Shown piece after piece: positions 16,508 to 56,359 of a DNA stretch of 64,000 nucleotides (within the stretch, counting starts at the first letter, position 1; the number at the start of each line of letters is the position of its first letter). The translations under genes and the position numbers were made by a program. The notes under the pieces are model-generated. The model was given only the letters and a program-made list of their open reading frames with translations, made no database searches and was not told the DNA's origin. The stretch is from Octopus vulgaris (Eukaryota), in NCBI GenBank assembly GCA_951406725.2, contig OX597816.1, positions 97,278,001-97,342,000 of the forward strand, read 5' to 3'.

Positions 16508-17775
16508 TTAATTGTTTGTCGTAGACCCGTTAAGAAGTGGCCTGTATTTTGTAATAAAGAGAGTTTCTTTACTTATTCGTTGTCTCGAGGTTGTATCGTC
16601 CCTAAATTGGTAGAGGGGGAAAATCCTGAAGCTTGGTGTTTTTTTGTTGGCGCAAGTATCTATGTGTTGGCTAAAAGCTATTTTTCTGTTTTGGGGAATT
16701 TTTATCTGGGATCTGTGCAGGGCCATTCGTTTACGCAAACTATTTTTTGTTTGGCCTATGTACTGCTCTTGACACCCGGAGCAGGTTAGTGAGTATATTA
16801 GGTTCTCCGAAGCACATGTGAAGTTGCTTTTCACTGTAAACCGTTGTCCCTGTTTGAAGGAGAACTCTGATCCCTCAATTAGATAGTCGCATATCCCGCA
16901 ATTGGGTCTTCCAGAATTTTTTACTGTCGGCTTTTGTGTTGAAGAGTGAATTCGGGCTTGTGTTAGGAGACTTTTCATGGATTTAGGCTGTCTCTTGCTT
17001 CTTATGATCGTGTGTGTTTGGAGGATTGTGTTCATTCTGTGGTCTTTTTTTAGGAGGGGTATGTTGTGGAGGATGGTGCCGAAAGCTTCGTTATTGAGAG
17101 GGTTGTGTGTGGAGATGTATGGTAAGGCTTTTGGTTGTAAGTTTTTCTTTGATTTGGGGTGTCTCAGTTCCTTGATGTTAAGTTGAAGGGCACGTTGAAT
17201 GCACTTGTCAATAAGTGAAGGTGGATAGTTCCTGGTGATAAGGGTATCTTTTAGTTCTTGTAGTCGTGTGTCTCTGGTGTTTGCGTTAGAGACTATAGTG
17301 CATATCCTTTTTGCTAGATTGAAGGGGATATTCATCCTGGTGTGTCTGGGGTGGCATGAATTGAATGGAAGATATTGCTTAGAGTCTGTAGGCTTATAAT
17401 ATATGTCTGTTTCTATTATATTATTAGCTTTCTTAATGAGGATATCGAGGAAGGGGAGTTGTTGCTGGCTATATTCCATCGTGAATTGGATGTTTACGTC
17501 CAGTCCGTTTAAAATTTCCTGGAATTCTATGAGTTTTTCTATATATTTTATGCCAAAGAATGAAACAGTCATCTAGATATCTCTTCCAGTTGTTTTCTAT
17601 GTAGATGGAGAAAGGGCTGCCATATCTTTCTAGAACCTTACGATACAGACTGATCTCTATAAATTCTATGACTAGGTTGGCAAAGGAGGGGGCCATTCGT
17701 GTACCCATCGCAGTCCTCGATTTTTGTCGGTAGAAGTTGTCATTGAAGGCGAAGAAGTTATTTTCCAACACCTCA
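16508..17775 (-). pseudogene. Penelope-like (Neptune-type) RT + GIY-YIG endonuclease, 5'-truncated, one frameshift
   Basis: Motifs FYRQ..TAMGTRMAPSFANL, WKRYLDDCFILW, LPFLDILI, YYKPTDSKQYL..SCHP, Cys linker GRPNCGIC, and LIYSLTCSGCQEQYIGQT...RMALHR. Frameshift near 17555. Confidence 0.93.
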
Positions 17776-18487
17776 CTACTTTCACCCATTCATATTCTCC
17801 CTTCTCTGTTTTTTTTCTTCTTCTTCCTCTTCTTCTTCATCATCATCATTATCATCATCATCGTCGTCATCATCATCACCACCATCATCATCATCATCTT
17901 CTCCTTCTCCTTCTTCTTCCTCTTCTTCTTCTTCATCTTCTTCTTCTTCTTCTTCTTCTTCTTCTTCATCATCATCATCATCATCAACATCGTCATCTTC
18001 TTCTTCTTCTTCTTCTTCTTCTTCTTCTTCTTCTTCTTCTTCTTCTTCTACTTCTCCACCTTCTACCCCTTAACTTTGTCACTAATGTTTTTTAGTATAA
18101 CACCTACGCAAATTCCATAAACAAGCCTTTCAATAGAAATATTCTCCTGAATTGAACTGCGACTGCTAGCCGCCACTGACCATTCAAAATACGACCATCA
18201 GGGCACTCCCAGATTTTCCCACCCCCTTTCCTCATCAGCCTTCTTCTTCTTCTACCCTACCAAGAACTCACAACGACCTTCAACACACAAGTGCAAACAA
18301 GGGAGTCAGAGAAAGGCAGAATGCCACTTATATCTGAACACTACTATAGAAATATTCCTTTAAAAAAACTTTTCTTCTAATTTTTCTAAATTTAATTATT
18401 TAATCGTTACAGTTGAAAAGGTCTCAAAATGACCGAAACCGGTACTGAAATGTTCACTATAAAATTATTTTAGCATTTTCTATTTTT
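17767..18487 (+). repeat. Inverted copy of the PLE 3' terminal repeat (pLTR)
   Basis: 17767-~18010 is the near-exact reverse complement of ~16185-16390, including the compound TTC/TCA microsatellite. It continues to a hammerhead motif at 18405-18452. Confidence 0.8.
18405..18452 (+). ncRNA. Minimal type I hammerhead ribozyme, U3-A8 compensatory core variant
   Basis: cgttacag-TTGAAAA-ggtc tcaaaat gacc-GAAA-ccggt-A/ctgaaatg. Stem II is GGTC/GACC, stem III is the palindrome ACCGGT, the triplet is GUA, and stem I has 7 of 8 pairs. Confidence 0.72.
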
Positions 18488-18531
18488 GACTTGTTTTTTT
18501 CATATATATCAACTCATGTGTTCCTTTTCAC

Positions 18532-18579
<48 letters not shown>

Positions 18580-18586
<7 letters not shown>

Positions 18587-19720
18587 AATTTGGTTTTATC
18601 CCCTAACTCCAGCTGCTGTAGTCAACTCATCGAGTTTCTTGAGGACATCATCCGAGTTACTGATGGCGGCTTATGGGTAGATGCTGTCTACCTTGATTTT
18701 GCTAAACCCTTCAATCCTGTGCCACACAAACATCTTATGGTAAGACTCTCTGCAATGGGTATGAAGGATTATTTCTATAACTGGCTGAAGGCTTTCATTC
18801 TCGGTCGGAATGACGCAGTTACGCTTCTAGGACATCGTTCTTCACTCTGCAAGATGGCTTCTGATGTACCACAGGGATATGTTCTTGGACCCTTACTGTT
18901 TGCTACATATATTAATGATATAGATGCCCACTTGAGGAATATTACAGTGCTGAAATATGAAGATGACATCAAGCTGTACCTCAAATTAAAAAGATCAGAT
19001 CCTATGCGCTATTGATCTTTCCTGCAATCAGACCTGGATACAATGCAGCCATGGATCTCTGACTGACAACTCGAGCTTGCTGGCGATAAGTGCGTTACCA
19101 TGTATTTTGGGAAGAAAAATCCAGCCTTTACATTGTCCCTAAGCAATACCAATCTCAAGAAGTTTCTAGCGGACATGATCGGGGCATTATTGTAAACAAC
19201 GATCTGCGTTGGACAAACCACATCTCTATAATCATCAAGAAGGCTGAGCAGGGGGCTAGCATCACCGAGTTAGACATTTGTCAGCCGCTCCCAGCTATCT
19301 ATTTAAAATTGTATACGACAATGAAACGTCCACGCTTGGAATTTGCATCACCAGTCTGGAACTCCTATCTTCCTCAGCATATAAATCTCCTGGAAACTGT
19401 TCAGAAACGTGCAACCAAACAAATACCCACAAGATTATCTACCTTCTTTCCAACAACAACCATGGGCAACATTTTGAATTCCATGACAAACTTTCACGGA
19501 CATGCTTATAAAATCGAAAAACAACACAGCAACCATGACTTTCGGAAACATTTTTTCACGTTCAGAATTGCTGAAGCATGGAGTAAACCACCTGTCGAGA
19601 TGCTACATCCGCCGAGATGCTACATCTTTCAAAACTTCCATGCTTCCTGAAATCATCCAAAAGTACAACTGAAGGCCTATTTTTTGTAGTGCACGTGAGC
19701 ACTGTATACAACATTTTCCT
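18580..19720 (+). pseudogene. CR1/L2-group LINE reverse transcriptase remnant
   Basis: VDAVYLDFAKPFNPVPH, VPQGYVLGPLLFATYINDI, KYEDDIKLY, RPRLEFASPVWN, LLETVQKRATK, RKHFFTFRIAEAW; contains stops and frameshifts. Confidence 0.9.
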
Positions 19721-23097: not shown

Positions 23098-25822
23098 ATT
23101 ATTTAGCTCATATGTGATACCAGTAACCCAATTCTTTTACTTCTTATGCTATACACCGAAAACGTCCTCAATTTTCAGTTTGCATGATTTCGTAGTAAAT
23201 AAGTAGAATTTAATACTTCAGGTTTAAAATAATGGATGGTTGTGGTTTTCATCACTTTTTGCAATTATCTTTAAAAAAATACGAATTTGTTATTCATTTA
23301 TTCCAGAAAAAAATTGCAAAAATATTACAGGTGTCAAAATTTTGATAATTTTCAGAATTTTCAGCCAATCAGAAAACAGCTTGTTCGCTGCGTCTTCCAT
23401 CATCAGGGGTGGGGGCAACATCAGCATGTCAAAACAATGCTACTCCTCTTGAACACTCACACGCATACACACATGCACAGAGTTGAAGTGCTGATTTTTC
23501 TTTTCAGCGTTGAATGTTCACCATTCCACTTCCATTGCATACACATACACACATACGCACACACGCAATACACACACAAACTTTCAGATACCTCCCTTTT
23601 ACACACACACACACATACTCACACGGAGTTGAAACGCTCCCACCACCAGTTTGCCATCACCCATTCCTTATTCATCTATTACCCCTTCCTTTCTCATTCA
23701 TATGTTGTGACGGAGAAAAACACAAGAGTATTATTATAGTGAGAAGATTATCTCATGCCTCCTTCTCCTCCATGTGCGCATGCGCAGCATCTTTGGTTAC
23801 TATGGAAACAGAGCTTTTCGCCAAGGTGATGTGTAAGGCTAAAATACCAAAATTTTGAAAATTTGAAAGACTAATAAAATTTTAATATGGATTTATAGGA
23901 AAAATGAATTTCACTTTCATAATTATCATACAAAACTTAATAAAATTAAAAACAAGAATGGTAATAACAGAACAACGCGCTCTGTTTCTTTCCCCCTATT
24001 CCTTCCACCCTCTTTAATTCCTTCTCTCTCTCTCCTTCTTTCTCTCTCTCTCCTTCTTTCTCTCTCTCTCTACTCTCACGTGACCTGCTGATCAACTAGC
24101 CATTCCGCTGGTGACCGCTGCCGGTTCAACATTGTCTTCGTCCGCCGAAAAGGCATTTTTTCAAAACACGCCTGCTAGATAAGTTAAATTTGTCTAAAGT
24201 CGTAAGACACCTGCTGCTGTCCTGTTATTACCATTCTTGTTTTTAATTCTATTTTTGTTTTTTGTATTTATATTCGTGTGGATTCGTCCGTTTTTCTGTC
24301 CTTGTTTCGTTTACATTCGATCCTTTTTCCAAGAAATCTAATGCTCGCAGCTTAGTTTTTCATTGGGGCTGGCCGTTTCGGAGCAATATCAGGATTAATC
24401 AGCCGAAATTTGCTATGATGATCCGGTTCCTGACTGAAGATTAAAGCCTTCGAATGACCCGTCGATGCACAAAATACTCGATGCACAAGACCACATCACC
24501 GGGTGTGACGCTCGTTGCAGGTCTTGAGATCGCTCATCGTCTTCCATGCACGTTCGTTCTCCAGCTTTTGAGGCGCGTGTCCCACTCGTATAAGAAATTT
24601 ATATATTTATATATGTACACAAACATGTAGGAAGTAAATAGACACCTTTAACTTCGACACGCAACAATCGAACAATTCACCTTTAGATTTAGGTTTCTGT
24701 CGAGTTTTTCGTATAGCTCTATCTAGTATGCTCCAAAGATTTTCAATTGGGTTCATGTCAGGAGATTGGCTCGGCCAAGGAAGCTTTTTGATCCCATTTT
24801 CAGTCAACCAGTGTTGACCTTTTCGCTGTGTGGTATGGAGCCCCATCTTCCATAAATAAAAACTCATTTTACGTTATGTTATCGTGTCTCGACATCGGAA
24901 GTAGCCCTTGCTTAATTATTTCGATGTATATTTCAGAGTTTATGGTTCCAACACATTTGATCATCTCAGAATGACCATTGCTGGTGACAGCTCCCCATAC
25001 CATTACAGAGATACCGCCATGTTTCACAGTTGGTTGGAGTCATTTCAAATCAAATTCTTGATTGGGAAGCCTCCAGACCCAAACACGCCCACTGTCTAAA
25101 AATAATGCAAATCTGGATTCATCTGAGAAAATCACTCTATCCCAAAATGAACTGGATTTTTCTAACATCTCCTCAGCCCATTTCTTTCTCTTTTCATGTT
25201 ACTAAATGGAGGAAGGAGAGGCTTTCTTCTAGTTGTTCGTCCATAATACCCAAGATTATGCAGATATGTAACACACGTTCTTGGACTAACTTCGAGCTGT
25301 TTACAATGTCAGAAGCCATCGAACAGGGTTCGTTTTCCAAAATTCTCTTCAAACAGCGAAGCTTGCTTTCCGAGGGCCCAGGTCGGCCGGGACGAGAATC
25401 TGGTGATTATTTTCGTTGGTTTTTAAATTGCACTATAATTTTATTAACAGTAGCAAGAGGAATTTGAAGATTTTCGGCAATTTTTCGCTGGCTAAGACCA
25501 GCCTCAGTTTGCCCAAAAATATGACCCCTTTGAAAATCTGACATTTCTGCTGAATTTTTTGTGCGTGGCATGGTTACTCTTCGCAAATCTTTAATATAAT
25601 GGCACCTGGAATGAAAAAGAATAATTACATTGTAAATTCTACAATGCTAAAAACATATTAAGAGGGACTAAAGCCATCTGAATATGGCTAGGGACAGGGC
25701 AGGGTGGTGGGGGTGTTACTGTTGCATTTAGCCCCAGGCGAACATCGACGTCACCAGAAAGGCTCGACACCGTCACGGTGCCCTAAACCTGCAAAGGGAG
25801 GTAATTCCCCGATGAAGCGGAA

Positions 25823-25874
25823 ACCACACACGGACCATGGTTTCAAGGTGTATTGCCTATCATCGGCGTGTGGT
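25823..25874 (-). ncRNA. Type I hammerhead ribozyme (variant core), copy 1 of 5
   Basis: Exact reverse complement of the 26369-26420 motif; C17 corresponds to position 25833. Confidence 0.78.
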
Positions 25875-26180
25875 AGGCCTCCGCTTCCTCGACGAATTCT
25901 CACTATGCAGGATTTCTTATATAGATTTTCAAGCAAAATACATTTGCTGATTTCGAAAATCTGTTCGAAAGCAATAATAATTCTCTAAAAGGGATATAGA
26001 CAGTAACTGCTCGATAACATAAGGGACTAAAGCCATCTGAATATGGCTAGGGACAGGGCAGGGTGGTGGGGGTGTTACTGTTGCATTTAGCCCAGGCGAA
26101 CATCGACGTCACCAGAAAGGCTCGACACCGTCACGGTGCCCTAAACCTGCAAAGGGAGGTAATTCCCCGATGAAGCGGAA

Positions 26181-26232
26181 ACCACACACGGACCATGGTT
26201 TCAAGGTGTATTGCCTATCATCGGCGTGTGGT
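26181..26232 (-). ncRNA. Type I hammerhead ribozyme (variant core), copy 2 of 5
   Basis: Exact reverse complement of the 26369-26420 motif; C17 corresponds to position 26191. Confidence 0.78.
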
Positions 26233-26368
26233 AGGCCTCCGCTTCCTCGACGAATTCTCACTATGCAGGATTTCTTATACAGATTTTCGAAATCAGCAAA
26301 TGTATTTTGCTTGAAAATCTATATAAGAAATCCTGCATAGTGAGAATTCGTCGAGGAAGCGGAGGCCT

Positions 26369-26420
26369 ACCACACGCCGATGATAGGCAATACACCTTGA
26401 AACCATGGTCCGTGTGTGGT
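26369..26420 (+). ncRNA. Type I hammerhead ribozyme (variant core CCGAUGA), copy 3 of 5
   Basis: accacacg-CCGATGA-t agg caataca cct t-GAAA-ccatggt-C/cgtgtgtggt. Stem I is cacacg/cgtgtg, stem II is agg/cct, stem III is the palindrome ACCATGGT, and the GUC cleavage triplet ends at 26410. Confidence 0.78.
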
Positions 26421-26727
26421 TTCCGCTTCATCGGGGAATTACCTCCCTTTGCAGGTTTAGGGCACCGTGACGGTGTCGAGCCTTTCTGGTGACGTCGATG
26501 TTCGCCTGGGGCTAAATGCAACAGTAACACCCCCACCACCCTGCCCTGTCCCTAGCCATATTCAGATGGCTTTAGTCCCTTATGTTATCGAGCAGTTACT
26601 GTCTATATCCCTTTTAGAGAATTATTATTGCTTTCGAACAGATTTTCGAAATCAGCAAATGTATTTTGCTTGAAAATCTATATAAGAAATCCTGCATAGT
26701 GAGAATTCGTCGAGGAAGCGGAGGCCT

Positions 26728-26779
26728 ACCACACGCCGATGATAGGCAATACACCTTGAAACCATGGTCCGTGTGTGGT
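26728..26779 (+). ncRNA. Type I hammerhead ribozyme (variant core), copy 4 of 5
   Basis: Identical motif 359 bp downstream; predicted cleavage after 26769. Confidence 0.78.
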
Positions 26780-27086
26780 TTCCGCTTCATCGGGGAATTA
26801 CCTCCCTTTGCAGGTTTAGGGCACCGTGACGGTGTCGAGCCTTTCTGGTGACGTCGATGTTCGCCTGGGGCTAAATGCAACAGTAACACCCCTACCACCC
26901 TGCCCTGTCCCTAGCCATATTCAGATGGCTTTAGTCCCTTATGTTATCGAGCAGTTACTGTCTATATCCCTTTTAGAGAATTATTATTGCTTTCGAACAG
27001 ATTTTCGAAATCAGCAAATGTATTTTGCTTGAAAATCTATATAAGAAATCCTGCATAGTGAGAATTCGTCGAGGAAGCGGAGGCCT

Positions 27087-27138
27087 ACCACACGCCGATG
27101 ATAGGCAATACACCTTGAAACCATGGTCCGTGTGTGGT
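27087..27138 (+). ncRNA. Type I hammerhead ribozyme (variant core), copy 5 of 5
   Basis: Identical motif; predicted cleavage after 27128. Confidence 0.78.
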
Positions 27139-28317
27139 TTCCGCTTCATCGGGGAATTACCTCCCTTTGCAGGTTTAGGGCACCGTGACGGTGTCGAGCC
27201 TTTCTGGTGACGTCGATGTTCGCCTGGGGCTAAATGCAACAGTAACACCCCCACCACCCTGCCCTGTCCCTAGCCATATTCAGATGGCTTTAGTCCCTTA
27301 TGTTATCGAGCAGTTACTGTCTATATCCCTTTTAGAGAATTATTATTGCATATTAAGAGGCTTAGATCAAAAAGTTTGAAAATTGAAGGTATATATTTAC
27401 TTCCAGCATGTCTGTGTATATAATGATAATATATGCTCACACACATGTGTATATATATATATATACACACACATACATACACGCACACACACACATGCAT
27501 ACATACACGCACACATACAACCACAAATACACGCGCGCGCACACGCACGTATGCTTACAGACATGAAACGAGACGTAATCCAAAGTGTTAATTGCATGTA
27601 TAAGAACATATGAACAGCATAACCAAATACAAATATGTCAAATACCATGGAATTTATCAAAGTTATTATTATTTGATTTGATTTATTAAAATTATTGCTG
27701 CCTCTAGATAATGTATCACAATTACCAAATAACAATGTAAGGTGGAGAGACTCTCAAAAGTTAAGCATTCACCAAAGCTGATTTGGCTCTAAGGGAAAAG
27801 ATATTTTCTGAAGGTATTAGGAATGTCGTGACACGTGTTTCTGCCCCTGTAGGTGTGATCAGCATATCCGTTGTTCTACTTAATTCAGGAGTCAAGCGAC
27901 TTAAACACATGATTATATAATTTTTTTTTTAAATGAACCTATTTATGTCCTAGTTAATTTGCATACTTTAAAGAAAATTTTAGACGTTAGAATTTTGAAT
28001 CGAACACCTTGCGGTTTTTGTACTGACTCTTTATGCTGAGTTCAGACACCAACGAAATCAACTTAAGGTTCATATTTTCGGGAACGAGAAATAAGTACAA
28101 ATCCAGGGCAGTTGTTCGCGAAATTGTTAGCGGATCAGCTAAAGATAAATGATTAGAAGGTACTTGGATGGAACTGAATTAGGTGAAGACACAGTATCGC
28201 GCTAAATCATATCCAGCATTCTAACACAGAATAAAGAACTAAATAATTTAATTCTGCTCTCAAAGCTTCAGCAGTCCTTAAGATACGTATTACACGAAAG
28301 TTAAAATAACTGATACT

Positions 28318-35619: not shown

Positions 35620-37800
35620 TTCTTTGTTGTACATTGATAGAAAGGGAAAATTAGGAAAGTTAGCTACTAACCTTTCCTCCTTTCTATTTTCTTCTAATGC
35701 TATTTCTTTGCAAAACTCCATCGATATTACTCTAATCTCTCTTTTGAGAGCTACACACCACCTGTTGTTGACGCCCCCACCTCGTCAACTTCTGCTTAAC
35801 TAAATTGCTGACCCGGTTCCTGTAAGCCTTACGTGCAAGAAACGACATGTTCAGCTTCTGGTAATTGGGTCCTAACCTACGTGTCTTATCTAGGTCGATC
35901 GTACAGATTACAGGCTTATGGTCTGTATACATGACCGTTTTAAAAGTGGACATCCTACACTATTACCTTGTCAAAATCCTATCAATATACGATCTAGATG
36001 ACCCTAAGCGGTTGGTCCAGGTCCATACTGGCGCATTAGAGGAATCTCATCGGTACCTGTCAGACAGTTGGAACTGGCTGATCAGTTGCTAGAGGCATTT
36101 GCAACCTTTCTTCTATCTGCTACTTCCACACAATCCCAGCATTGACCTAAGATTTCTTTCCAGTCCCCTACTAACAGTAAAGGGCGAGACATATCTAGAA
36201 AGGCTTCCAGACGCCTGAAGAAATTCGGCCGTTTGGTTCCGATAGGAGCGTCGACGGACACCAGTCTAAAGACAGTACCTTCACTATTGCTCACGTCCAG
36301 GACCACCAACTTCCCGTCCGGGTCCCGGAAGATCGACTTTACCGCGAGATCCAGTTCATTCATAAACAGCACTGCCACTCTACCTCCCATTCCAGGCCGA
36401 CTAACAGATACAAAGATCTGACAGTCGTCGAACATGAGGGACAGTGCGCGTGTATTGGAAATCCTTGTTTCCCTGACAGCAATTATATCCGGTTCTAGAG
36501 ACCTGAGGTCATTGAGCAGGCGCCCCTCCTTCCGAAGCGACTCCAGACCTCGAACAATTAAACATCCTACTCTGAATGTGGCCATGTTGGCAAGATAAAG
36601 AGAGAAAGGAAAGGTTTACTTACCTCCTGGTGTCATATGAAGATCGGGTTGTTCGACGTACCCAATTGGTGGGGTCTTTTTGGGGAACCCCTTTAAGAGC
36701 GTCAATGTAGGTCTCTGGTTCGGGGTTCCCACGTCCTTCGGAAAGCTCTCTCGAATTTTTGTGTAGGAACCCAGCGACATTCTCACCAGAAGTAAATCTG
36801 GAACGCGAAACGTATCGGATTCGGATATAAAGCACTCCCTTGTTTCAAATTCCGTGTTGTATGTTACGAATGCCAGCGGTTCCTCGTCGTCCCTTTTGAT
36901 AAGTACGAAATTGGGTTGTATCGTGTTCAATTTATTTGCTTGGCCGTAGTGGTGGTAGTTGTGTTGTTGTTGTTGTTTATGTGTGTGCTGTGAGTGTTGT
37001 GTCTGCAGTTTTAGATGTTTGTGTAAGTGTTTGTTCTTGTTTAGGTTGTTTGCGTTCGGGGCGTTCTGGTGATGGTAAGGGTATTGGTTGTGCTGGTGTT
37101 GGTGTTTTGAAGAGATGTTTGCGTGGGTGATGTCTATATTATTTATTCGGGGTGTTGTTATGCTTTGTGCAGTTTTTCTTTTGAGCTTTTTTTTTGGGAC
37201 CTTTTATTTTTCCTTCATTTTCACTATTGGAAGATGAATGGTCTGTTGCTGTGCGTCTGCGTGTATGTTTATAATCTTGTTTATGTGTGTATTTTTGTTT
37301 GGTGTGAGGGAGGTGGGAGAGCTTTCCTTGTTTCCCCTAGGGTGGTTAATGTCTTTGCTGTTGTTGCTGGTGGTTTTGTTGGTACGGGTGTTGTTTGTAG
37401 TCCTCGTCTCGGCGTAAGCAGCAGCTGGGGCCTTTGACTCCTTATACTTTGTATCAGCCCGTAAGTGTGTTGTTTCTCCACAAGCGAAACAATGCGGCCT
37501 TTTGCCCTCAGTTATGATGTGTATCATTGTCCCGTTCTGGAGACGGATGTGGTCCAGGATTTTTTTATGTTTTCGGCTCTGATCTGGAGCAGTATCTCCA
37601 GGCTACTGTATTTCACGACTTGGCTGTTCCATTCAGCGGACAAGCAATTTTTGTTCGCTATCTTTGATTTTGTCAAAAACATTAGGGGCATCTGAGCCCA
37701 AACAAATAACGTAGCCGCTAAAGGCTACAGGTGGAGAAGAACTAACCAGCTCCCCAAGGTCCTGATTTGTTTAACTACGTAACAATTACAAATGTACAAT
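35620..37800 (-). mobile_element. L1/Tx1-like LINE 5' part: ORF1 zinc knuckle and APE endonuclease
   Basis: ORF1 PHCFACGETTHL; ORF2 N-terminus MATFRVGCLIVRGL...DIIAVRETR...GGRVAVLF...LLLVGDW, then TDHKPV and YQKLN.SFL. Confidence 0.85.
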
Positions 37801-51010: not shown

Positions 51011-51383
51011 AATAATTTAAAAATATAAAGTATAAAAGCCATCTCAATATGGCTAACCACAAAGGGGGTTGTTACTGTAGCTTTTTAGCCCCAGGAGATC
51101 ATCGTCTCCAGCTGGCTTTAGACACACTTTCTGTGCGCTTAAGGTATTTGCAAAGGGAGGCCATTCCTTTCTCGTAAGCCTGAGTGATACGCACCGGACC
51201 GGGCCTCCCTTTGCAAATACCTTAAGGACACAGAAAGTGTGTCTAAAGCCAGCTGGAGACGATGATGTCCTGGGGCTAAAAAGCTACAGTAACACCCACC
51301 TTATTGAGATGGCTTTTATACTTTATATTGTCGGGCGATTACTGTTTACATCTCGTTCTGAGATTTAATAATTTAAAAATATA
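51011..51383. mobile_element. Short foldback insertion homologous to the 359-bp unit (diverged family member)
   Basis: Shares AAGCCATCT.AATATGGCT, GTTACTGT.GC..TTTAGCCCCAGG, GCAAAGGGAGG and ACAGTAA blocks with the 359-bp unit. Inverted arms at ~51022-51162 and 51202-51329, then a ~37-bp tail. 17-bp direct repeat AATAATTTAAAAATATA at 51011-51027 and 51367-51383. Confidence 0.8.
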
Positions 51384-52882: not shown

Positions 52883-55618
52883 TCACGGCGCAAACGGGAG
52901 TCCGGATGGCCTCTGTGCAAGGACAATCCGAACACAGACAGGCGTTACAAGGAGTGACCGGTTGAGCGGAAATGGCGTGAGACTGGGGTCATTGCCGAGG
53001 CGGATGTCTCGGAGGTGTTCCGCGAACCGGTCAGCCAAGCGGCGTACCGTTTGTCCGATGTACAGGGAATGGTAGAGAGAGCGATAGGGTCGATGATGGG
53101 TGCCGGTGAGGAGGGTGGTGTTGGAGAGGTAAGGGCAAGTGCGGAAGCGTGGGCGGGAGCAGGAGAACGTGCCAGGCTGGGAGGTAGGGTTGGGGAAGAA
53201 GCTGTGGACCAAGAGGTCTCGTAGGTTGTGGGCTCGTTTGAAGGAGGAGAGGGGTCGGTTAGGGAAGATGTGTGAATTAGACGGGTCGGACTGAAGATGC
53301 CGGATAGCTCGGAGAATGGTGCGTTGGAGAGGTAGGGTGGTGGGGTGGTAGGTGAGGGGAAAATGGAGGTGGGAAAATGCAGGGCGGGTTCGGGGAGAGA
53401 GAGCAGATGCACGGTCCACGGAACGTGCTCTGGCAAGGGCAGTGTGGATAGTGGTGAGGGGATACCCATGTAGGATGGAGTGGTGATCCATGAGTTGAGA
53501 CTGAGTCTCAAAGTCATGGTCGTCACTACAGAGCCTGCGTAGAAGGATGAATTGGGAATAGGGGATGGAAAGCTTGGTGTGTTTGGGGTGGGAGGAGGAG
53601 AAGTTTAGGTATGAGTGTGAGTCTGTGTGTTTGTAGTGGATGGAGGTGGTAAGAGTGCAGTGATGAATGCTGAGTGATATGTCAAGAAAGGAGACAGATG
53701 TGTCAGAGATAGTGCAGGAGAAGTGGCGAGCAGGATGGAAAGATTTGACGAAAGATAGGAAGGAGTCTGGATATTCGCGGGAGAGTGAGGTGGCACTGAT
53801 ACAGTCGTCAATATAACGGCCATATAGTTCGAGAGTGGGACCAGTGAAACTAGAGAATATTTGAGCCTCAACATAGCTAACGAGCAGGTTCGCATAGTTG
53901 GGGCCCATTCTCATTCCCATGGCCACTCCCAAGACCTGCTGGTAAAACTCGCCCGCGAACGAGAAGCAGTTGAGTGAGAGGACAAGTTCGGCCAGACGAA
54001 CGAGTGTGAAGATGTCGGGTTGGGGATTGGTTCGGAGGTCTTGGAAGTGCTTAAGTGCACGCAGCCCCACGTGGTGAGGGATCACAGTGTAGAGGCTCTG
54101 GATGTCCATTGTAAAGAGAAGTTTGGAGGAGCCAGGAGGGAAGGAGAAAGAGTTGAAAGGACGAAGAGCATGGTTGGTGTCATGGATGTGAGAAGGAAGA
54201 GAAGCCACTTGGGGGGGGGGGCAAGGACACGGTCGAGATATTTGGAGATAAGCTTGGTGGGGCAGTTACTGGCGGAGACGATGGGGCGGCCAGGGTTGTT
54301 GGGTTTGTGGATTTGGGGGAGGAAGTAAATGGTGGGGTGCGGGGGGTTCGGACAATGAGGTTAGATGCGGTGTGGGGGAGACGGGAGGACGAGATGAGGT
54401 CGTGGATGGTAGAGGAGACCGCCTGTTGGTAGCTGGACGTGGGGTCAGCGGACAGAAGGCAGTAGAAGGAGATGTCAAGGAGCTGGTGGAGAGCTTCGGC
54501 CCTGTAGAGGTCCGCGCGCCATACCACCACAGCTCCACCCTTGTCAGCTGGTTTAATAACGATGTCAGCGCGCCGTCGGAGGGAACGAAGAGCCGAGAGT
54601 TCGGCTGGGGAGATGTTGAGACGACGGTGGCGCCTGGAGAAGTTGAACCTCTCCAAAGCGCGCTGACAGGCACCCGCAAAAAGATCCTCTACTTGGAACT
54701 GGCCAGGAGCAGGCGTCCACTGGGATGGTCGGCGGCTCAGGTCAGTGAAGCAGTCCTCCTTGTTTGATGCGGGTGGAGTGTCGCGGAAAAGCGCGCACAA
54801 CCTGACGCGGTGCACAAAGCTGTGGATATAAGCACGAGTCTGAAATTCCTTACAGGATGGAGTGAGGAGGATGAAACGCAGACCCCTACTGAGGATGGAG
54901 CGCTCCGCCACAGAGAGGGGAAGATCTGGGGGAATGGTAACAACAGACTGAAGTGGAGAAGGGTGGATGGAATAGAAGTAGGAGGGGTGGATAGGATGGC
55001 TGTAAAAGGGTGGTAGGGCTGGTGGAAGGCTGGAGGAAGGGAGTGGGGATGTGTGAGGGGGTTTGGAGGGACATTGAGGTTGGGTGTTGGTGGGTGGAGC
55101 CTATCAGGGAGGAAGAAGGGTAGTAGAGGAGTTGGGGTAGTGGCATCGGGTGTGATGGAATGGATAAGTGAGTGGAGTTTACGAAGTTTGGTGCTGGCAA
55201 GAAATTGATGAAAGAAATGATTTAAATGAATTATATAACGCAACGTGTTCTGAGCATGGAAGGGCGGCAGAGAGGAGAAAAAGATGGAAAAAGCAGGAGG
55301 GAGAAGGCGGTCGATGGTATGTATTTTAGAGGGATTGGAGCGAGTGGTGGCACGTATAAGGCGGTAAAATGTGCTACGGAGCATGGGTAGGATGGATGAA
55401 GCAGAGTGGAGAGTGGGGTGTAAATGGAAGCGGAAACTTTTAGGGATGAGGCGTTGATGTAAGCAGCGGCTGAGAAATGAAACGTGGCTAGAGAACCGGT
55501 TTTTCTTTAATGAGTAAAGAGAGGTTAATGGACGGCTGAAAGCAGTGGGAAGGAAGTAAGCAAAGGTACGTTTTAGGCGATGGTGAAGAGTGAGGAGGCA
55601 GGATTTATAGTCCGGCAT
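52883..55618 (-). pseudogene. PLE reverse transcriptase/GIY-YIG ORF (split by frameshifts)
   Basis: The ORFs 54737-56053, 54180-54911 and 52883-54208 join into one PLE protein. The endonuclease region appears partly deleted. Confidence 0.9.
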
Positions 55619-56359
55619 TGTGGAATAACAAGGAGACAAAAAAACAATAAAGGCAATTAAACGTGGAAAGCGAACATACAAAAGGTGTGAGAGAAAGAAG
55701 CACAAGCGTTTGAAGAAAAAAATAAATAATAAATAAAAAAAAAATGAAAATAAAAAAAAATGAAAATAATATAAATAAATAAATAAAAGAAGAATAAGAA
55801 GAAAAGGGCGTGAGGAGAAGAAAAGAAAATATATGCAAGGTAGGAGAAGAAAATAAAAGAAAATAAAAGCGATGAAGATGGAACAAATAGAAAGTGAGGA
55901 GAAAGGGGGTAGATGAGGAGGTAAGAGAAAGGAAACGGAGGGAGAGGGGGCAAAATAACGGGTGCAAACTAGAGAAAACCGCGTAAGGATATCCAGAGAA
56001 GTAAGAGACGACAGAAGGAAAGACCAAAAAATACAGAATGTATAAAATGACAAAAATTTACGTGAAGTTCAAAGGTTTTTTAGACGTCGTGGTGTATTGC
56101 AAGAATTTCTCATCAAGAGTAGAGTCCACTGTGATCCGTGTGTAGGAGAGCTGCAGCCGGAGGATGAGTATCCGTAAATAGTAGATGAAGAGTAGGTAAA
56201 GAGTCCAGTGGAGAAGTTCGTAGTGGTAAGAAATGATAGGATCAACGTGTGAGACCACGTGAGCGTGAGGGAGAGTTCACGAAGAAAACAATAAGACGAA
56301 GACAGGTGGTGTACAAAACAAACAGATGTATTAGTATAACACTCAGGAATAGAAAAAAA

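Follow-up and report, generated by a model that had tools for sequence, protein, structure and literature searches.

Metazoan retrozymes that lack long terminal repeats (non-LTR retrozymes) were defined in a study that demonstrated their RNA circles and proposed reverse transcription on a primed circle, with Penelope-like elements (PLEs) as candidates for the enzyme (PMC7229834). Vertebrate retrozymes co-occur with PLEs and resemble their pseudo-long terminal repeats (pLTRs), and local amplification has been discussed (10.64898/2026.07.22.740005). An inverted copy and a 30–40-bp tail at one end are typical of PLEs (PMC3846280, PMC8557442), and a purified PLE cuts AT-rich DNA in vitro, extends both strands and starts reverse transcription at two internal RNA sites that bound the tail (PMC11167929). 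These and later statements about published work draw on portions of the cited papers. Here we analyse a 64,000-nucleotide stretch of the Octopus vulgaris genome (contig OX597816.1, positions 97,278,001 to 97,342,000; "the window"), which holds repeats of a 359-nt hammerhead-bearing unit at 25654–27360. The octopus family to which they belong fits the known class of non-LTR retrozymes and supplies unusually direct genomic evidence on mechanism. On balance we favour the reading that the locus is a young non-LTR retrozyme insertion, written in trans by a PLE reverse transcriptase (RT)/endonuclease that primed at the two ends of a staggered cut and went round a circular RNA of 359 nt.

Unit positions are numbered from the base right after the predicted hammerhead cut (position 1 = window 26411). 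The unit is present about 4.7 times across 25654–27360, as two outward-pointing arms. Tandem Repeats Finder reports a period of 359 nt with 3.0 copies at 99% over 26279–27349, the right arm comprises 3.0 units on the plus strand, and 25666–26280 holds 1.7 units in reverse complement (minus strand). The initial annotation had described about 4.7 near-identical 359-bp units and made no mention of an inversion; the count, the period and the two unit-to-unit differences (C>T at 26893 and a one-base deletion at 26093/4) stand, while the inverted left arm rules out one array. Its view that the locus lacks a credible open reading frame (ORF) agrees with a longest ATG frame of 58 amino acids on either strand; GC content is 46.8% and there is no LTR structure. 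The insertion lies in a decayed minus-strand element of Tc1-like type, which was recognised by eye from its translation. All 11 paralogous Tc1-like copies span the site uninterrupted with the 12-mer once, so the annotated 12-bp duplication is a true target-site duplication (TSD) within an older Tc1 element. The last three bases of the left TSD copy also fit the left arm, a match that we read as priming microhomology. Position 25664 is G in this Tc1 copy and C or T in its paralogues, which creates the three-base homology and may explain the use of a non-(TA)n site by the window copy. The junction between the arms falls on a unit-internal hairpin with a 24-nt loop. The features of the locus are as follows.

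24612..27422, minus strand: older Tc1-like DNA transposon, host of the insertion; terminal inverted repeats at 24612–24654 and 27380–27422.
25654..25665, plus strand: left TSD copy, 12 bp; single copy in 11/11 paralogous Tc1 sites.
25666..26280, minus strand: left ("short") arm, inverted, with 1.7 units; it ends on the outer side at unit position 170.
26279..26288, no strand: head-to-head junction of the arms; 9/10 bases compatible with both.
26279..27348, plus strand: right ("tail") arm, with 2.98 units; it ends on the outer side at unit position 220/221.
27298..27349, plus strand: "tail" segment between the fixed ends of the family (170–178 and 221/222), whose bounds would be two RT start sites.
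27349..27360, plus strand: right TSD copy; 12-mer identical to the left copy.

Searching the octopus genome with the unit gave at least 262 matches, with 40 of 708 candidates scored. Exact end patterns beside TATA occur genome-wide as 441 tail ends and 526 short ends, against 0 matches for control patterns read backwards. This is a young non-coding retrozyme family with at least 526 dispersed insertions, mostly in (TA)n. We mapped 100 loci in three sets: the window plus 39 top matches, biased to long arrays (set 1); 40 tail ends taken in list order from the first, passing over three that set 1 contained (set 2); and 20 long loci with a second haplotype (set 3). Almost all are embedded in (TA)n, with the window copy as an exception, and TSDs are mostly unreadable in such sequence, though one of 13 bp is visible at locus L040. 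Units are 359 or 360 nt long and each arm runs for 0.1–15 turns. Private single substitutions amount to only 0.11%, and the family is therefore young. A young and dispersed family supports the recently active retrozyme that the initial annotation had inferred.

The outer ends of the arms carry the footprint of a PLE. They fall at unit position 221/222 or at about 170–178, some 44 nt apart and neither at the ribozyme cut, and the inner ends are scattered. Sets 1 and 3, chosen without regard to ends, contain 60 loci: 48 head-to-head, 10 single arms and 2 complex. The head-to-head loci divide into 42 with one short and one tail end, one with two short ends, none with two tail ends and five with a damaged end; 42 of 43 scorable two-arm loci hence pair one short with one tail end. 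An inverted short arm is present in 34 of the 40 loci of set 2, which were chosen by their tail end. The tail end shows no target homology; the short end falls in an AT-rich stretch, with which it varies. Matching end geometry is seen in two sister families of retrozymes (73% and 65% alike), and families A and D among the genome's autonomous PLEs have two ends of like kind, with tails of 33–37 nt. Because the arm ends show the "tail" geometry of PLEs, a PLE enzyme acting in trans very likely moved the family. The consensus fold of the tail region in three families is weak (−9.7 kcal/mol, with 3 of 21 pairs covarying); all three keep an unchanged 5-bp hairpin upstream of the short end, and no common tail hairpin was established among them. 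By exact matching, inner ends accumulate immediately ahead of the cut site; this was rejected as evidence for cut linear templates because the second-pass stop rate is similar.

Both arms point to a single RNA. Fourteen private substitutions in 11 loci are common to the two arms, in register. In set 2 (n = 34) the reach of the arms is correlated (rho 0.64) and 10 end within 12 nt, compared with 2.0 expected; in 14 loci the short arm reaches over 20 nt further along the template than the tail arm, the surplus being as much as four turns, and in 8 the opposite holds, which means that neither arm simply copies the other. We infer twin priming by a dimeric enzyme on one RNA. The 82 fully covered loci resolve into 14 haplotypes, and 941 of 960 marker tests in 74 loci were homogeneous within the locus, many of them trivially (reference state). 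Locus–variant pairs comprise 215 fixed in all turns, 28 partial and 323 single. Six variants, each confined to one locus of 100, are fixed in every turn there, through as many as 11+2 turns (L054); "private" here refers to the 100 mapped loci out of at least 526. A private variant that fills every turn of both arms argues for a one-unit template read repeatedly. No cluster of one-copy indels marks the cut/ligation point in about 387 passes. Given a PLE mechanism, a circular monomeric RNA is the probable template. Long arrays with patchy or alternating haplotypes occur at L031, L221, L225, L038 and L043, and the.X.X. pattern of L043 would fit a dimer circle.

Transcripts were sought among assembled contigs from four runs guessed to be RNA, a kind of sequence that cannot reveal circularity. 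One contig of 402 nt matches 26350–26725 without differences, crosses the cut site in the hammerhead-sense orientation and has a loose end at its start, which we take to be a template-switch adapter. A second, of 390 nt, is one 360-nt unit plus 30 nt, as for a closed loop or a tandem. The two contigs are weak hints at transcription of the unit.

A pattern scan found the type I hammerhead five times at the window locus, three times on the plus and twice on the minus strand and always in unit sense, which upholds the annotated hammerhead in each unit with its cuts after 26410, 26769 and 27128 and adds two on the minus strand:

25827..25872, minus strand: hammerhead motif, left arm; predicted cut after 25833.
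26185..26230, minus strand: hammerhead motif, left arm; predicted cut after 26191.
26371..26416, plus strand: type I hammerhead motif, right arm, first; predicted cut after 26410.
26730..26775, plus strand: hammerhead motif, right arm, second; predicted cut after 26769.
27089..27134, plus strand: hammerhead motif, right arm, third; predicted cut after 27128.

Stem I has 6 bp and continues into a long rod, stem II has 3 bp and the palindromic stem III 2 bp; the core is CCGAUGA/GAAA, with CCGAUGA (U4C) in place of the canonical CUGAUGA. By a folding estimate, the self-complementary 8-mer of stem III would form a duplex of −11.2 kcal/mol between two copies of the unit. Hammerheads that act as dimers have been described (PMC4209133), and the motif of the unit matches that design. 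The monomer folds with z = −5.5 against 100 shuffles. Rfam gave no match at the gathering threshold across the window, nor at E ≤ 10 on 26279–27000. Among 387 copies of the motif, change is common at one site only, the free core position 7 (124/387). Across families, double changes in stems I and II keep pairing (95.5% paired), a value equalled by 0 of 500 shuffles in a control that ignores relatedness among families; stem III stays palindromic with other letters, and C3–G8 alternates with U3–A8. From these sequence comparisons, selection appears to maintain the ribozyme motif.

The pattern scan of the unit found no antisense hammerhead, so the RNA is not viroid-like with ribozymes in both polarities; an antisense look-alike noticed by eye was rejected, having neither stem I nor a valid cut triplet. 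A supposed downstream "anti-ribozyme" masking the core was likewise dropped, as the stretch in question extends stem I and the core misfolds locally. Two very common minimal hammerhead repeats flank many loci (for example L085 and L164); they have the core CCGACGA (U4C) and end at (TA)n, and U4C cores therefore recur in this genome.

Together, these results suggest the following course of events. Arrays would be transcribed on the hammerhead strand, and neighbouring hammerheads could pair through the palindromic stem III to excise 359-nt monomers, which a host ligase would circularise as in known retrozymes. The enzyme would cut AT-rich DNA, usually (TA)n, the target observed. One DNA end would then prime at 221 without homology and the other at about 170–178 with a few AT-rich bases, on one RNA; the ends and their pairing are observed. 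Each copy would run for 0.1–15 turns before head-to-head joining, which is seen as the product. Some long arrays may reflect later remodelling or multi-unit templates.

Several points weigh against the favoured mechanism, and a number of them favour another template for the same twin priming: an uncleaved linear multimer, with arrays growing by self-insertion into the AT-rich tail or by unequal exchange and a hammerhead that is slow or incidental. At L040 a mixed-haplotype pattern occurs in register on both arms, which implies a template of at least three units there, and its haplotype switch lies between positions 199 and 277, across the tail site. L031, L221 and L225 are mosaic, and 12 of 74 tested loci show some mixing. 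Beside the shared private substitutions stand 87 in the shared register that are not common to both arms, which we attribute to later mutation or RT error, and source arrays could exist among the unsampled loci. The U4C core makes efficient monomer release by the predicted ribozyme uncertain: the change "considerably decreases activity in vitro", yet a viroid with U4C works in vivo (PMC3088659). The active hammerhead fold is estimated to cost about 7 kcal/mol as a monomer, and the covariation control is blind to relatedness. Unprocessed RNA was the main substrate of the PLE in PMC11167929, and one of nine frog retrozymes cleaved (10.64898/2026.07.22.740005). Finally, no partner PLE with a related pLTR emerged among families A, B and D plus 30 GIY-YIG loci, in a search that covered the best-scoring of thousands of candidates and was run without Penelope/Poseidon-type queries. 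A linear multimer would, however, require a homogeneous source array behind all 14 haplotypes and behind every private variant, although divergence within the family is only 0.11%, and it sits poorly with 215 fixed against 28 partial patterns and with a ribozyme structure kept across families. We therefore regard it as unlikely, though worth keeping in view.

The RNA circle copied by a PLE also has to be set against readings that dispense with twin priming or with the circle. If only one end were target-primed and the first complementary DNA folded back to copy itself (a self-priming idea, PMC3846280), the hairpin at the window junction, the near-palindromic junctions in 10 of 34 loci, the shared variants and the correlated reach of the arms would all be explained. 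Such a copy cannot exceed its template, yet in 14 of 34 loci it is the short arm that extends further, with a lead of as much as four turns, and in 8 the reverse is seen, and the two fixed ends are left without a reason; we think this improbable. Slightly less probable still is that a linear ribozyme-cut monomer was reiterated by an RT jumping from its 5′ to its 3′ end in the manner of telomerase, without a covalent circle. PLE RTs are related to telomerase (PMC11167929) and clonal arrays would be expected likewise, but neither indels nor haplotype switches cluster at the cut point in about 387 passes. That the locus consists of multimerised pLTRs from an autonomous PLE, or is a satellite grown locally from a solo pLTR by unequal crossover (a model in 10.64898/2026.07.22.740005), is very improbable. 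The end geometry is pLTR-like and some mosaic arrays appear remodelled in place. Against this, the family occupies hundreds of dispersed sites, its inverted arms have a common haplotype and random inner ends, and 0 of the 100 mapped loci are joined to a PLE ORF (RT, GIY-YIG), four having separate PLE fragments at least 450 nt away. The pLTR-multimer half of this reading had been raised in the initial annotation itself, and the reading is already largely refuted. Large perfect inverted repeats are a known artefact of long-read assembly. The TSD agrees with the empty site, the arms are unequal and two fixed end sites recur in three families, so that we give an assembly fold-back almost no credence.

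The favoured mechanism, a PLE acting in trans on an RNA circle, had also been put forward in the initial annotation and is now backed by the insertion footprints; that annotation had pointed to PLEs like the two in the window. None of families A, B and D has pLTR sequence in common with the unit, and for this reason the window's two PLE families are only candidates for the mobilising enzyme. Family D has frames of 781 amino acids. Family A has a CxxxCxxC linker, a (TA)n target and short and tail ends of its own, and the family B copy carries a hammerhead-like motif with core UUGAAGA near its 3′ end. A loose-end motif, followed as a partner lead, ended at a further non-coding family (L156–L159), which lies head to head within (TA)n and is of unrelated sequence. 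The window further contains:

16508–17572, minus strand: family A PLE copy, truncated, of a young family; relatives have many intact frames of 784 amino acids.
18449–19650, plus strand: RT and endonuclease fragments of the long interspersed nuclear element (LINE) type.
36082–37602, minus strand: RT and endonuclease fragments of the LINE type.
51022..51375, no strand: copy of an older sister retrozyme family, about 72% alike; head-to-head, with one short and one tail end.
52883–56068, minus strand: family B PLE copy, decayed; relatives have open frames of at least 1000 amino acids.

At least three further retrozyme families were noted, of 354 nt (3079 candidates), of 355 nt (626 motif matches) and a distant one at L275. 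Their copies (window 51022–51375; L130–L154; L249–L273; L275) have end geometry like that of the young family, and their cores vary (CUGAUGA, UUGACGA, UUGAUAA, CCGAUGA). We interpret them as successive waves.

The older sister retrozymes are themselves the target of another element. Locus L155, rejected as a pLTR–ORF–pLTR arrangement, is a 5.3-kb L1/Tx1-like LINE within an old-family array (G000:C1:21247600-21256600), its clade being assigned from domain content and L1 similarity rather than a tree. The LINE family (L155; L274–L287) has a zinc-knuckle ORF1 and an APE-RT-zf-RVT ORF2, with 560 first-look candidates 94–98% alike. In all 14 fetched copies the 3′ end is found immediately upstream of a hammerhead and in the same sense; 13 adjoin older sister retrozymes at a point some 25 nt upstream of the core of the hammerhead, and the fourteenth a more distant hammerhead repeat. 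Target duplications are 13–15 bp where both ends are visible. No copy of the LINE was found in the 100 arrays of the young family, which differ in sequence at the corresponding site. Judged by its junctions, the LINE family is site-specific. Target-specific Tx1-clade LINEs (PMC4640811) are alike in that an APE-RT LINE enters a multicopy sequence at a single site and leaves a 13–15-bp duplication; the octopus LINE differs in that its target is a retrozyme. No retrozyme was found as a LINE target in the literature searched, and among site-specific retrotransposons a retrozyme would represent a target of a new kind. Full-length LINEs in arrays would be flanked by ribozymes, and any use of these is speculation. 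It is conceivable, though doubtful as a whole, that an RNA circle is rolled by a dimeric PLE firing from two fixed sites, one per DNA end, to yield inverted repeat and tail in one step, and that a LINE dedicated to this retrozyme lineage inserts ahead of the hammerhead so that flanking ribozymes excise its transcript, the young family having escaped through a change of target site.

In the papers considered here, the spread of animal retrozymes as PLE-copied RNA circles has so far been a proposal from co-occurrence and pLTR similarity. The hundreds of young octopus insertions record the act itself, in PLE tail geometry, paired start sites and clonal multi-turn arms. The family supplies a 359-nt protein-free substrate with predicted start positions, and the genome contains several young PLE ORFs that are intact, so that both the origin of PLE inversions and tails and the use of circles as templates become directly testable in vitro. 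The literature searched, which lay outside subscription journals and supplements, yielded no paper on a cephalopod retrozyme; Repbase or Dfam may catalogue the family or the LINE.

Compared with the described metazoan non-LTR retrozymes (coral, mussel and axolotl, PMC7229834; vertebrates, 10.64898/2026.07.22.740005), the octopus family shares tandem non-coding units of about 350 nt with GC below 50%, one type I hammerhead per unit with a short palindromic stem III, a TSD of more than 4 bp and co-occurrence with PLEs. Their circles have been seen on northern blots, whereas the octopus family is known here from sequence alone. What was examined of those two papers describes neither two-armed insertions that stop at two fixed positions, nor tail geometry, (TA)n targeting or clonal haplotypes. 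Newt satellite 2 and the Schistosoma hammerhead repeats (PMC4209133, PMC8490949) are also tandem repeats with dimer hammerheads formed via a palindromic helix III, but they form large satellite blocks, in contrast to the dispersed short two-armed insertions in octopus. Also close to the octopus family are the endonuclease-positive PLEs (PAc Poseidon, PMC11167929; PMC3846280, PMC8557442), which likewise have an inverted 5′-truncated copy, a 30–44-nt tail at one end only, a hammerhead upstream of both ends, an AT-rich or (TA)n target and a TSD of about 8–13 bp. The octopus retrozyme differs in having no ORF and in that both its arms are multi-turn repeats. Whereas the PLE studied in vitro used a like start site on both strands (PMC11167929), in the octopus family the two sites are nearly always paired, one per DNA end.

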